Assembly: GCA_050302075.1 (NCBI GenBank)
Contig: JBNLAH010000004.1
Span: forward strand, 32,001-96,000
DNA length: 64,000 nt
Source of the DNA: Parachlamydiales bacterium
GTDB lineage: Bacteria; Chlamydiota; Chlamydiia; Chlamydiales; SM23-39
Reading direction: 5' to 3'
This document shows, in pieces, positions 46,432 to 49,653 of the stretch. The position numbers and the translations under genes are program-made. Positions within the stretch are counted from its first letter, which is position 1. Every line of letters begins with the position of its first letter. Under the pieces are notes generated by a model. The model saw only the letters and a list, made by a program, of their open reading frames with translations. It was not told the DNA's origin and did no database searches.

Positions 46432-49400
46432 GTGGCATATTCAGTTCAAGCTTACAGACCTTCAGAAATTTTTAATCGTAGACGTGAAAGACATCAGCCT
46501 GGTATTCATGCATTAGATAGAAGAGTAAAAAGAGTCTATAGCGATTATCGTTTAAGGCATTTCAATGGAACCCCTCTTAGCTCTAGAGAAATTACTATAA
46601 GAATCAACAACTCTTCTATAGGAAATCTTTTGTCGTTAATTACATCTGAAATGTCATTTAATACCTATCATATAACTGCAGCAATTACTAGAACTTGTAA
46701 TATTTCTAAAAATAGAGGAAATCATATAAATGAAAGTCTTGTGTGGTCAAAATTAATAAACAGATTATTTTTGATGTTAAATGATCCAAGTCTTCATTTT
46801 GAAAAGAGATCTCTATGTAATATTTTATATGCAATTTCTAACAAAGTGAAAAGAGAACAGGTTAACTTAACAGGGGAAGAAATAATTGTTTTTAAGAATA
46901 TTGCATATATATTAGAAAAGCAGTTAACTAATCCTAATGAAGAGTTTAGTATTCTTGATTTAAGCACTATAATAAAAACATTTTCTATAGCAAAAGAAAA
47001 AAGCAGTAAAATATTCGCGACAAAATCTTCAGAAGAAGAATTCTTTAAGGTGGTTACAAATAAAATTAAGAAAAAAGACATAGGGTCTTTAAAACCCCGC
47101 GACTTGTCAGAGATGGCTTTTGCAGTTGCTAAGTTAAAAAATGATTTTGGGATTTTAGAAAAAATTTCAGATGAACTAAGACCAAATGAACATGAAAGTA
47201 AGCTTAAATATTTTAATGCTCTAGATTTGAATTTCTTAGCTCAAGCTTTTCACATTGCAAGAAGAAACGACCACTACATCCTAGAAAACATAGCTAAAGA
47301 AATTCATTCAAGAAGTGAAAGCTCTGAAGGTCTTAGAGATTTTTCGCCAAATTCACTATCCTTCCTTGCTTGGGCGTTCTATAATGCAAATAAAAATCCA
47401 TACGATCTTTTTAAAAAGCTCGCTGAAGAGATTTATTTTAAAGCAACTAGCAATATTGATGGGCTTGTAGATATTGATCTGGAGCAACTCTCCTGGCTTT
47501 CAATGGCATTTGCTGGCATGGGAAGAAATGATTGTTATATTTTTGAACTTATTAATCTTGAAATAAACAGAAGAAGTAAAAGCGAGATAGGTCTTAAAGA
47601 ATTATATCCAGATAAATTATCTATGTTAACTCAAGCTTTTAATCTTGCAAAATTAGATGACCATCAAATATTTGAGAATGTAGCCTTTGAAATAAACAGA
47701 AGAAGTAAAAGATCTATAGGTCTTAGAAAATTCGCGCCAGATGTATTGGCAAATATAGCTTGGGCTTTCTATAATGAAAATAAAAACCCATATAACATTC
47801 TTAATAAAATTGCTGAAGAGATTCCTCAAAGGTTTGATGAGTTAGGAACGCTTATAGACTTCACTCCAGAGGAATTAACTAAGCTTATATCGTTATCTTC
47901 ATATAATGATAATATTCACAAAATTATTGCAATAGAAATAAGTAGAAGATATAAGGAGCTAGGTAGTCTTAATAACTTCTCCCCTGAAGCGCTCTCAATC
48001 TCGATTCTCTTCTTTAGTGAGTTAAATAATAGCGGAAATTTTACTAAAACTTTAGAAATACTTGAATCTGAGATTAATGAAAGAATAGATCGTTCTTATT
48101 CTCTAGAGGATTTCACCCCATCCGAATTATCTAAAATAGCTAAGGCATTATCAATTAGAAGAAATTATAGCTTATTTGAAAAATTTGTCTTTTCATTAAA
48201 AGTGCGATACAACCTAAACCAATTTAGTGATTTTGATTGTGAAAATTTAGCAATATTAGCAGATGCTTGTGTGCTAGTAAAAAATGATAAAGAAATTTTC
48301 AGCTACATTGCTAATGTCATAATACACAAAGATCTAAAAAATATTAAATCTAATTACTTGGTTTCGATTTTAAACTCCTTTTATCTTGCAGAACAAGATT
48401 ATGGGATTTATGAGTGTATTTGCAAAGAAATAAGAAAAAGAAAGAGAGCTAACAATCTTGCTTATTTTAGCTTACATGATCTAGCTATGTTAGTGGTGAT
48501 TTTTTCTTTAGATGAAAAATATTTTAGGATATATGAAGACATTGCTTATGTTATAAATCAAAAATCTAAAAATCCTAATGAGCTTAATAGTTTTGAAAGC
48601 GCTGATATAGTTAATTTTGCAAAGATTTATTCTCAAAAAAATATAAAAAGTTATGAAATTTTCAAGCATCTTGCCACCGCTATAAATCTAAAGAAAAAAG
48701 AAAATGGGTTGCGCTGTTATAACCATGTTGATTTAATTAAGTTGCTCCGAGCTTTTAGCTTTTCAAACAAAGATCACGGGGTATTTGAGGATATTTCTTA
48801 TGCAATATGCGAAATAGGAAAAGAAAATTCTCTCTGCCATTTTACTCCTTTAGAGTTAATTCTTTTATCTAAAACTTTTAGTTTTTCAAGCAAAGATTTT
48901 GGGGTATTTCAAGAAATAGCTTTTGCAATAAGAAAAAGAAAGGAACAAAATCTTCTTTGCTATTTTAAACCAAACGAATTATCTGCTCTTTTCGTTTCTT
49001 TTAGTATATTAGAAAAAGATTATGGATTAATTGGTGATATTGTCGATGAAATACGAGAAAGAATACAATCACCACGTGAATTGAGTAAGTTTCGGCCTAT
49101 AGATTTAGCACATCTAGCTAAGAGATTAAGCTCACTACATGAATATGAAATTGCAGAAATATTAATAAGAGAATTTTTCAACAGAGAGATCGATATTGCT
49201 CAAAATTCAAAACCAATTACATTAATTTATTTTGCTACAGTTCAATGGATTATTGCTAAGAAAATTGCTAAAATTCCTAACGAATGGCTTGAAAAATTTA
49301 AAGAAAGAAATAACCATACGCTTCCCGTAACTTCAAGTTCAACTTTTGAAGACTCTGTTAAAAATGTTTTAATAAAAATGGGAATCTCTAATCACTTTAA

Positions 49401-49653
49401 TAGTGAAAGCACCATTTTTTTTAATATAAATGGAACTCGCCTAAAACTTTTTCAAGTTGATTTTCTTGATAGTGAAAGAAAATTAATAATAGAAGTTGAT
49501 GGACCTAATCATGCCTTAAAAAAAGGTGCTGATTTGGCTAGAGACTTTATTTTAAAAAACTTAGGTTATACTGTTGTTAGAGTTACCTCAGAAGAATGGA
49601 ATAAAAGAGATGATTTAGAAAAAGAAGAGTATTTAAAAAGCCTTATACTCTGA
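46432..49653 (+). CDS. Large helical-repeat protein with C-terminal RAP-like domain (OPR/FASTK-like)
   Basis: Tandem F-x-P-x-x-L-S-x-L-A-x-A-F units; C-terminal VDF...IIEVDGPNH...RDFILKNLGYTVVRVTSEEW. Confidence 0.8.
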   Translation: MAYSVQAYRPSEIFNRRRERHQPGIHALDRRVKRVYSDYRLRHFNGTPLSSREITIRINNSSIGNLLSLITSEMSFNTYHITAAITRTCNISKNRGNHINESLVWSKLINRLFLMLNDPSLHFEKRSLCNILYAISNKVKREQVNLTGEEIIVFKNIAYILEKQLTNPNEEFSILDLSTIIKTFSIAKEKSSKIFATKSSEEEFFKVVTNKIKKKDIGSLKPRDLSEMAFAVAKLKNDFGILEKISDELRPNEHESKLKYFNALDLNFLAQAFHIARRNDHYILENIAKEIHSRSESSEGLRDFSPNSLSFLAWAFYNANKNPYDLFKKLAEEIYFKATSNIDGLVDIDLEQLSWLSMAFAGMGRNDCYIFELINLEINRRSKSEIGLKELYPDKLSMLTQAFNLAKLDDHQIFENVAFEINRRSKRSIGLRKFAPDVLANIAWAFYNENKNPYNILNKIAEEIPQRFDELGTLIDFTPEELTKLISLSSYNDNIHKIIAIEISRRYKELGSLNNFSPEALSISILFFSELNNSGNFTKTLEILESEINERIDRSYSLEDFTPSELSKIAKALSIRRNYSLFEKFVFSLKVRYNLNQFSDFDCENLAILADACVLVKNDKEIFSYIANVIIHKDLKNIKSNYLVSILNSFYLAEQDYGIYECICKEIRKRKRANNLAYFSLHDLAMLVVIFSLDEKYFRIYEDIAYVINQKSKNPNELNSFESADIVNFAKIYSQKNIKSYEIFKHLATAINLKKKENGLRCYNHVDLIKLLRAFSFSNKDHGVFEDISYAICEIGKENSLCHFTPLELILLSKTFSFSSKDFGVFQEIAFAIRKRKEQNLLCYFKPNELSALFVSFSILEKDYGLIGDIVDEIRERIQSPRELSKFRPIDLAHLAKRLSSLHEYEIAEILIREFFNREIDIAQNSKPITLIYFATVQWIIAKKIAKIPNEWLEKFKERNNHTLPVTSSSTFEDSVKNVLIKMGISNHFNSESTIFFNINGTRLKLFQVDFLDSERKLIIEVDGPNHALKKGADLARDFILKNLGYTVVRVTSEEWNKRDDLEKEEYLKSLIL
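47089..49190 (+). repeat. Array of ~17 degenerate 37-45-aa helical repeats within the RAP protein
   Basis: Units such as FSPNSLSFLAWAF, FAPDVLANIAWAF, FTPSELSKIAKAL, FKPNELSALFVSF; identical 25-nt copies at 47558 and 47687 (129 nt = 43 codons apart). Boundaries approximate. Confidence 0.85.

Follow-up and report, generated by a model that had tools for sequence, protein, structure and literature searches.

Proteins in which tandem two-helix repeats are followed by a C-terminal RAP-type PD-(D/E)XK domain are documented in the FASTK family, in the OPR-RAP proteins of Chlamydomonas and Paulinella and in the RAP/HPR proteins of apicomplexans. The same layout is found in a protein of 1073 amino acids (aa), hereafter P0001, which is encoded at 46432..49653 of the window, i.e. 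the whole stretch of 64,000 nucleotides (nt) analysed here, from a Parachlamydiales bacterium. The analysis establishes the architecture of this protein, its family relationships, the folds predicted for it and the conservation of its catalytic residues. It further suggests, with a confidence that is about evenly balanced, that P0001 may be an accessory, rapidly diversifying, repeat-guided nuclease acting on nucleic acid (probably RNA) and plausibly a secreted effector acting on host RNA. An original prediction, made from the sequence of the window, had described the repeats and the terminal domain and proposed an RNA-binding or RNA-cleaving effector; the observation is confirmed, and its interpretation appears right on architecture and plausible on function.

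The bacterial background of such proteins can be drawn from a few papers. A survey of PD-(D/E)XK proteins published in 2012 lists RAP as eukaryotic, with a sequence from Parachlamydia acanthamoebae beside one from a lycophyte (PMC3424549). One or two RAP candidates are reported in some bacterial and archaeal proteomes (PMC8190603, Table S1 of which may name further bacteria). In 2020, an OPR-repeat and RAP protein of Orientia tsutsugamushi (OtRAP) and the SKWP effectors of Ralstonia were presented as bacterial look-alikes of the OPR, FAST and RAP proteins (PMC7729196) and, in 2026, the SKWP repeat module was found to be structurally closest to the repeats of a RAP protein from Candidatus Rickettsiella isopodorum, RNA recognition being proposed (PMC13667924). 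The SKWP repeat proteins, whose repeats measure ~42 aa, are described as translocated type III effectors (PMC7729196, PMC13667924). The repeat and RAP architecture is not new for bacteria, and P0001 is an unusually repeat-rich, fast-evolving addition to a kind of protein that is known but unstudied: the literature searched, supplements aside, yielded no functional work on a bacterial repeat and RAP protein.

A repeat array closed by a Vsr-like nuclease domain

Both a word-indexed search and an exhaustive phmmer search retrieved a single close relative of P0001, the 785-aa protein P0003. The GTG start of the P0001 gene is credible since the N-terminus of the protein aligns from residue 1 with the methionine start of P0003. 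The AlphaFold2 model of P0001, built from a 40-sequence alignment, has a mean predicted local distance difference test score (pLDDT) of 79.5 and a predicted template modelling score (pTM) of 0.55, with residues 1-45 disordered and residues 51-960 helical. Together with a hidden Markov model (HMM) of the repeats and with the domain searches described below, it delimits the following parts.

46432..49653, plus strand: whole coding sequence of P0001, helical-repeat and RAP/DUF559 nuclease protein (1073 aa, GTG start)
46432..46566, plus strand: residues 1-45, arginine-rich, low-confidence and probably disordered N-terminus (pLDDT <50 over residues 1-31 and 36-45)
46582..46929, plus strand: residues 51-166, six helices forming ~3 degenerate hairpins that precede the recognizable repeats (pLDDT ~90 in the model; missed by the repeat HMM)
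46939..49191, plus strand: residues 170-920, array of 18 two-helix units in tandem, each 37-47 aa long with a mode of 41-43 (repeat HMM, autocorrelation, all-helical model)
47368..47823, plus strand: internal duplication in the array, with 66-nt copies at 47368-47433 and 47758-47823 that share 82% identity and are spaced by 390 nt (3 units)
49207..49311, plus strand: residues 926-960, two modelled helices linking the array to the nuclease domain; the stretch best conserved with P0003
49312..49650, plus strand: residues 961-1073, Vsr/DUF559/RAP-type PD-(D/E)XK nuclease domain (Pfam, models, fold searches, sequence match to the PDB entry 3hrl_A)
49459..49512, plus strand: putative active-site residues D1010, E1021, D1023 and H1027, within VDF ... 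IIEVDGPNH (alignment conservation)

The repeat HMM was seeded from the F-x-P anchors of P0001 itself and converged on the 18 units of residues 170-920, with the consensus L..F.P.dLs.La.AFS..n..nDy.IFE.IA.EI..R. As this procedure is circular, two controls were applied. Autocorrelation of residues 170-920 with a BLOSUM matrix gave peaks at lags of 43 (z 6.5) and 41 (z 4.9), for a maximum of z 3.9 over all lags in 200 shuffles, and harmonics at lags 84 and 130 (z 4.7 for the latter). Furthermore, no unit reached E<=1e-5 in any of 100 shuffled proteins, whose best unit scored 3.8 bits versus 11.7-55.4 bits for the real ones. The original prediction, which counted about 17 clear units of 37-45 aa with the consensus F-x-P-x-x-L-S-x-L-A-x-A-F ... 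I-A-x-E-I-x-x-R, thus comes very close to these data: its consensus agrees with that derived from the HMM, the ~3 weaker N-terminal units that it added match the six modelled helices of residues 51-166, and the reading frame 46432..49653, with its repeats and its C-terminal nuclease domain, is present as claimed. Likewise, the AlphaFold model that it called for predicts both the helical stretch of residues 51-960 and a C-terminal alpha-beta-beta-beta-alpha-beta domain.

The two close relatives differ in the length of their arrays, P0003 having ~11 units versus 18 in P0001. P0001 has its additional units at about residues 345-634, among them the three-unit duplication that is still detectable in the DNA. 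In the nine pairs of orthologous units, 86 of 146 scaffold positions are identical, versus 33 of 128 variable (unit-specific) positions. At the other end of the protein, the first 60 residues have an isoelectric point (pI) of 11.35 and include 13 R/K and 5 D/E, and the N-termini of P0001 and P0003 share 40% identity; this disordered basic N-terminus may be a candidate secretion or targeting signal.

The C-terminal domain matches two Pfam families above their cut-offs: DUF559 (PF04480; 40.4 bits, cut-off 20.6, residues 1006-1061) and RAP (PF08373; 34.6 bits, cut-off 24.2, residues 1020-1070, and 39.7 bits in a six-frame search of the genome). A third family, REase_MTES_1575, is matched under its cut-off, and the sole sequence match in the PDB is the DUF559 structure 3hrl (3hrl_A, E 0.0018). 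The C-terminal string VDF-x7-IIEVDGPNH...RDFILKNLGYTVVRVTSEEW quoted in the original prediction is found in the translation. Across the 40 aligned sequences, D1010, E1021, G1024 and H1027 never vary and D1023 hardly does (>=90%). A separate alignment of 28 domains agrees, with no variation at E, G and H and with both D kept at >=90%; it also gives P0001 a short H-to-RD spacing, as in DUF559.

In the model, the domain comprises helix 971-982, strands 990-999, 1002-1013 and 1018-1023, helix 1025-1043, strand 1047-1052 and helix 1061-1072. A separate model of residues 921-1073 (pLDDT 85.2, pTM 0.71) is predicted to follow the order alpha-beta-beta-beta-alpha-beta. When this domain model was compared with the PDB by Foldseek, Toxoplasma mitoribosome chains came first, followed by I-Bth0305I, Vsr and 3hrl. 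An exhaustive VIA-align search retrieved the T. gondii mitoribosome chain 9g6k_L9 (Z 13.4), I-Bth0305I (Z 12.0, root-mean-square deviation (rmsd) 2.2 over 90 residues), Vsr (Z 11.4, rmsd 1.7 over 96 residues), the FAST1-FAST2-RAP structure of human FASTKD4 (Z 11.2, rmsd 2.1 over 98 residues) and 3hrl (Z 10.1), all remaining matches having Z <=8.6. The Toxoplasma chains are presumably RAP/HPR proteins, which is not evident from the titles of the entries. Because of these Foldseek and VIA-align matches, the domain is assigned, on its predicted structure, to the Vsr-like PD-(D/E)XK fold of the RAP/DUF559 kind. The RAP or PD-(D/E)xK domain announced by the original prediction therefore stood the profile check (PF08373), with a score above the cut-off, a conserved site and a predicted fold that matches Vsr, I-Bth0305I, FASTKD4 and DUF559 at Z 10-12.

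The active site of Vsr is described as the pair D51/H69; FASTKD4, in which N570 occupies the position of the histidine, is reported to lack catalytic activity (PMC11879112). FASTKD5 has been presented as a nuclease (PMC12242768). Unlike FASTKD4, P0001 keeps both the aspartate and the histidine. From the spacing (17 residues versus 18) and the structural match, rather than from a residue-level alignment, D1010/H1027 would be equivalent to D51/H69 of Vsr.

A tree of 94 nuclease cores (96 columns) was built from the 115 proteins reported by hmmsearch, once scores lower than 25 bits, five near-duplicate sequences and two that filled fewer than 60 columns had been removed. In this tree, P0001 and P0003 group with 16 short stand-alone Vsr/DUF559-like proteins (Shimodaira-Hasegawa-like approximate likelihood ratio test, SH-aLRT, 94 and 91, not starred), a selection biased by the fact that the short proteins had been retrieved as matches to P0001. 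Names were found for one of ten of these short relatives, a 'very-short-patch-repair endonuclease'. The placement in the tree, a DUF559 score higher than that of RAP and the short H-to-RD spacing fit a mosaic, in which a FAST/SKWP-like array would have been fused with a Vsr-like blade of bacterial type. Its origin may lie either in transfer from a eukaryote or in assembly within bacteria.

Relatives of the repeats and described repeat proteins

Searched with phmmer against 1.84 billion representative sequences, P0001 matched 199 proteins at E<=1e-3, 23 at E<=1e-10 and two at E<=1e-30 (itself and P0003). Beyond P0003, the word-indexed search gave weak matches only, to FAST_1- or RAP-annotated proteins from protist transcriptomes. 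A Pfam scan (E<=1e-4) of the 38 best phmmer matches that follow P0001 and P0003 identified FAST_1 in 35 and RAP in 21 of them; three have a pseudouridine synthase domain instead, and one, P0023, has a shikimate kinase domain only. Three of the ten clusters looked up had names, namely a dinoflagellate protein, a diatom protein and P0023 itself, an SKWP-like 'shikimate kinase' of 2674 aa from Bradyrhizobium that matches residues 379-901 of P0001 with E 3.6e-13. P0023 shares its C-terminal module with the SKWP effectors Mlr6331 and Mlr6361, the latter two being described in PMC13667924. In NCBIfam, sub-threshold matches were obtained with PRK09169 (E 1.4e-17) and with XopAD/skwp (NF041399; E 2.9e-7, 28.1 bits for a cut-off of 2000). 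No Pfam PPR family matches P0001 at E<=1.

Structural searches point in the same direction. With the whole model as query, Foldseek placed trypanosome RESC proteins at the top, then mitoribosome chains from T. gondii, Chlamydomonas and Tetrahymena, and PPR10, the latter being a general structural match only (E 1.6e-5, TM 0.22/0.31); generic solenoids such as clathrin, mTOR and importin were also matched, with weaker E-values. Neighbours in the ESM Atlas are eukaryotic FAST_1, RAP and RESC6 clusters and one bacterial cluster of 814 members, made of proteins of ~1137 aa that carry RAP (97%) and DUF1601 (90%) and come mostly from Pseudomonadota. The predicted model as a whole thus resembles organellar RNA-binding solenoids, and the repeats appear, from sequence and predicted structure, to belong to a FAST/OPR/HPR/SKWP continuum, with an SKWP-like period of ~42 aa.

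Within this continuum, P0001 resembles the eukaryotic FAST_1 and RAP, OPR and HPR proteins by a significant sequence similarity of the repeat region, and these proteins provide the best structural matches of both its solenoid and its nuclease domain. It differs from them in that it is bacterial, has no FAST_1 or FAST_2 match and has a repeat period of 41-43 aa versus 37-40 aa, and in that its nuclease domain has the short H-to-RD spacing of the DUF559 type and the higher DUF559 score. P0001 has the tandem degenerate two-helix repeats that characterize the OPR and HPR proteins but not their repeat lengths (~38 and ~37 aa, respectively); a length of 38 aa is given for the OPR repeat (PMC7729196). 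Kinship with the OPR and HPR families was judged indirectly, from the similarity to FAST_1 and RAP proteins.

The RAP proteins of Parachlamydia, Orientia and Rickettsiella, which were compared with P0001 by their description only, and the other FAST_1 and RAP open reading frames (ORFs) of Chlamydiota share with it the same overall architecture, occurrence in obligate intracellular bacteria and a patchy distribution. However, P0001 and P0003 form a small subfamily of their own, P0001 has more and longer units (18 of ~42 aa), and its nuclease domain does not cluster in the tree with those of the other chlamydial RAP proteins. The tandem alpha-helical repeats of ~42 aa and a weak but significant sequence similarity recall the SKWP, RipS, XopAD and Mlr6331 effectors. 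Unlike these effectors, P0001 scores far under the family cut-off, is devoid of the RNA-dependent RNA polymerase-like, GTP-pyrophosphokinase and shikimate-kinase modules and has a Vsr-like nuclease end. DUF559, Vsr and I-Bth0305I share the catalytic fold and motif of the C-terminal domain and are the nearest sequence relatives of this domain taken alone; these DNA enzymes stand alone as short proteins or have other fusion partners, whereas the domain of P0001 ends a 960-residue solenoid.

Host genome, locus and distribution

The host is a member of the Chlamydiota that has a type III secretion system as well as nucleotide transporters. Its assembly of 1.84 Mb (89 contigs, 96% complete) contains seven matches to the TLC nucleotide transporter (TLC/NTT), four of them full length, these paralogues being located on contigs C1, C5 and C6 and in the window. 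Multiple nucleotide transporters are typical of energy-parasitic intracellular bacteria. The best named relatives of the transporter of the window (60-62% identity) belong to metagenome-assembled genomes (MAGs) of Parachlamydiales, Chlamydiales and Chlamydiota. The type III secretion genes comprise one SctV/FHIPEP gene, directly followed by an HrpJ/CopN-like gatekeeper gene, and two secretin genes. A search for the marker Chlam_OMP6 gave no match in the genome, but its control was likewise without any match anywhere. The 'chlamydia-like intracellular bacterium' of the original prediction is supported by the Chlamydiota-related transporters, the TLC set and the type III system.

The other features of the locus and of the window are listed below.

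45022..45909, plus strand: leucine-rich-repeat (LRR) protein of 295 aa, upstream neighbour, eukaryote-like (Pfam LRR_4/LRR_6; weak RPS2-like LRR)
45947..46030, plus strand: tRNA-Leu(TAG) gene, upstream limit of the variable slot in which the P0001 gene lies (same syntenic block in 6/6 relatives and in the contig L026)
49854..50864, plus strand: protein of 336 aa of no known family, downstream neighbour (no Pfam or PADLOC match; hydropathy)
58599-60098, plus strand: TLC/NTT nucleotide transporter, one of the full-length paralogues, the genome also having shorter matches

In six genomes of the same family, a block o528-o341-o225-MotA-ExbD-(UPRT)-tRNA-Leu(TAG) is followed by a variable segment of 1.0-6.9 kb and then by MetA/DUF192. 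This slot downstream of the tRNA-Leu(TAG) gene is a hot spot of variation in gene content in the chlamydial family, its cargo differing from one genome to another (L020-L026). L025, for example, has hydrolases there along with a Schlafen AlbA_2/HATPase_c_4 protein, and L022 has unknown proteins along with a GT10 fucosyltransferase. No homologue of the LRR, RAP or 336-aa genes was found in the eight same-family loci examined. In the ~400-nt gap between the tRNA gene and the RAP gene of the window, a short and very hydrophobic reading frame is present on the minus strand (46080-46265), which may or may not be a gene.

P0003 is the positional orthologue of P0001 on L026, a metagenome contig fully syntenic with the window and organized as o341-o225-MotA-ExbD-UPRT-LRR-tRNA-Leu-RAP(=P0003)-unk336-DUF192-cc114. 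Nine flanking proteins are 68-92% identical between the two loci, whereas the identity of the RAP proteins is 33-35% in BLAST and, depending on the region, 37-50% in global alignments. As judged from these sequences, the P0001 gene is by far the fastest-evolving gene of its locus, changing by gain or loss of repeats. Base composition was also considered as a signal of transfer and set aside: the difference between the gene (GC content 0.295, 0.200 at third codon positions) and 13 genes of the window (0.285-0.361 and 0.208-0.312, respectively) is too small.

Both protein-coding neighbours are lineage-specific: the LRR protein is 78% and the 336-aa protein 69% identical in L026, and neither is present in the eight same-family loci. 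The 336-aa protein has hydrophobic segments at about residues 135-163 and, near its C-terminus, in a bilobed stretch of ~40 aa at about residues 286-325, a layout that recalls, as we see it, that of the chlamydial inclusion-membrane (Inc) proteins; its search in the ESM Atlas returned nothing at 0.9 or above. No PADLOC family matches P0001 or three of its neighbours. In ten other chlamydial loci with a RAP gene, none of the 43 ORFs scanned, i.e. those nearest the RAP gene among the 79 ORFs of at least 170 aa, matches an LRR family in Pfam at E<=1e-5; the LRR gene is therefore treated as a co-inherited neighbour and not as a partner.

At the scale of the phylum, P0001 used as a query finds matches in three of 400 sampled genomes: its own, the MAG G179 (repeats) and G023 (nuclease domain only). 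The RAP HMM scores above its cut-off in 18 of the 400, all from the same order, and in none of the 68 other genomes of the family of the host. Among nine RAP-matching chlamydial ORFs that were scanned, RAP was found in all nine and FAST_1, above its cut-off, in three. The ten further chlamydial loci each have a single RAP gene encoding ~500-800 aa, in unrelated housekeeping contexts. Because of this distribution and of these loci, the RAP-type repeat proteins are regarded as a sparse but recurrent accessory family of the environmental chlamydiae. A search with P0001 and P0003 found no further relative in the genome contigs searched, and one with the G179 proteins matched only two chlamydial MAGs. 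Among the sequencing runs listed for the stretch, none is of RNA; one DNA run contains it entirely and may be its source, whereas the others share 5-7% of its words.

Two side observations concern other chlamydial members. In locus L034 (G100:C3:114500-129000), the adjacent minus-strand ORFs 5917-8361 and 8439-10802, encoding 815 and 788 aa, both match RAP and form an apparent tandem pair. The chlamydial MAG G179 (L005/L007/L003) encodes at least three paralogous FAST_1 and RAP proteins, a local expansion of the family, with very regular repeats of 39 aa (RDLRDFNPQxLSNTAWAYAKAGxFDRxVFGKIAEEIRAR).

Possible functions of P0001

The favoured reading can be pictured as a guide arm plus a blade. 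The ~21 two-helix repeats would form an alpha-solenoid of the FAST/OPR/HPR/SKWP kind, fused to the Vsr/DUF559/RAP-type PD-(D/E)XK nuclease. The inner face of the solenoid would bind an extended single-stranded nucleic acid, most probably RNA, which is the probable ligand because of the analogy with every characterized relative of the repeats, and the bound strand would place the nuclease so that it cleaves, or retains, a defined site. Type III export may depend on the basic, disordered N-terminus, and the target would be host RNA, with mitochondrial transcripts as obvious candidates. Gain of repeats and change at their variable positions might retune the target between lineages. A much more precise version, in which P0001 would be a retargetable RNA (or DNA) endonuclease effector, delivered by type III secretion, whose ~18-21 repeats each contact one base of a long single strand while the blade cuts alongside, and which is reprogrammed between sister lineages, through duplicated repeats (11 versus 18 units) and exchanged variable residues (26% identity of orthologous units), as it tracks a host mitochondrial transcript, is quite unlikely. 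A mitochondrial presequence in the N-terminus was left as speculation: the first 60 residues include five D/E, and acidic residues such as those present among the first 45 are atypical of a presequence.

Several results weigh against this favoured reading. The propositions on RNA binding, cleavage, a code of one nucleotide per repeat, secretion and an organellar target are made by analogy only. FAST_1 (PF06743) matches neither P0001 in the Pfam scan nor anything in the whole genome at E<=1, and FAST_2 is absent from the nine Pfam families listed for P0001 at E<=1; being without FAST_1 or FAST_2 match, P0001 is not a member of the FASTK family by Pfam tests. The FASTK/OPR-like architecture that had been predicted thus holds for repeats related in sequence to FAST_1 and RAP proteins and for a solenoid model, and fails on the FAST profiles. 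The repeat region is not basic (pI 6.26), and the 26% identity of orthologous units at variable positions could equally reflect relaxed constraint. As to the nuclease domain, DUF559 outscores RAP, the cores of P0001 and P0003 stand apart from the G179 clade and from most of the long FAST/RAP proteins in a tree that is weakly resolved, and the characterized relatives Vsr and I-Bth0305I cut DNA. An intact-looking site is in addition no proof of activity, the fold of FASTKD4 being reported as inert.

P0001 could instead stay within the bacterium and, as a repeat-guided accessory nuclease or a factor that binds RNA, act on the transcripts of the cell itself or on invading nucleic acid, in RNA maturation or defence. 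This possibility, which we consider doubtful but appreciable, would account for the proximity of the nuclease domain to short stand-alone bacterial-type Vsr/DUF559 proteins and of the whole protein to the 814-member bacterial cluster with RAP and DUF1601, and it suits a variable slot of a kind that often holds defence genes, such as the Schlafen AlbA_2/HATPase_c_4 protein in the slot of one relative. Few phages are known for chlamydiae, however; P0001 and its neighbours match no PADLOC family, no partner gene typical of defence systems is found, and a divergence faster than that of the surrounding genes, together with eukaryote-like neighbours (the LRR protein and the Inc-like membrane protein), fits an interaction with the host better.

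Two further explanations bear on the blade itself. It is unlikely that P0001 is a sequence-specific DNA endonuclease, closer in its action to a homing endonuclease or a natural TALEN than to a FASTK protein, with repeats that would read host nuclear or mitochondrial DNA, or bacterial DNA, for a Vsr-like blade. The best-characterized structural relatives of the domain are indeed the DNA enzymes I-Bth0305I (Z 12.0) and Vsr (Z 11.4), DUF559 ranks before RAP, and in the tree the domain groups with stand-alone Vsr-like proteins, among them one named as a very-short-patch-repair endonuclease; but the kinship of the repeats, by sequence and by predicted structure, is with organellar solenoids that bind RNA and not with TALE or other DNA-binding repeats. 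Nor is the gene a homing element, since it lies outside any intron or intein and has a stable positional orthologue in two lineages. A non-catalytic scaffold, whose solenoid would bind protein or RNA and whose RAP-like domain would be a mere binding module, as reported for FASTKD4, is very unlikely: FASTKD4 is said to keep the fold and to have lost nuclease activity (PMC11879112), and generic protein-binding solenoids are among the Foldseek matches, with weaker E-values, yet in FASTKD4 N570 replaces the histidine of Vsr (H69), whereas P0001 keeps the Asp and the His, with D1010, E1021, D1023 and H1027 conserved across the 40 sequences. These alternatives keep some weight because the nearest characterized relatives of the domain cut DNA and because the FASTKD4 fold can be inert.

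As it stands, P0001 adds one uncharacterized bacterial protein to a family of which Parachlamydia, Orientia and Rickettsiella have already provided examples. With its intact active site, it is a protein in which a RAP-type domain might be shown to act as a nuclease. To our knowledge, the recognition code of FAST/OPR-type repeats is unsolved, and P0001 and P0003 constitute a natural experiment on it, since the same scaffold, at the same locus, carries different numbers of repeats and different variable residues. If P0001 is indeed exported and acts by cleaving or holding one particular RNA of a host organelle, as the favoured reading has it, this would be a case of a bacterium turning a host-type factor of organelle gene expression against its host.

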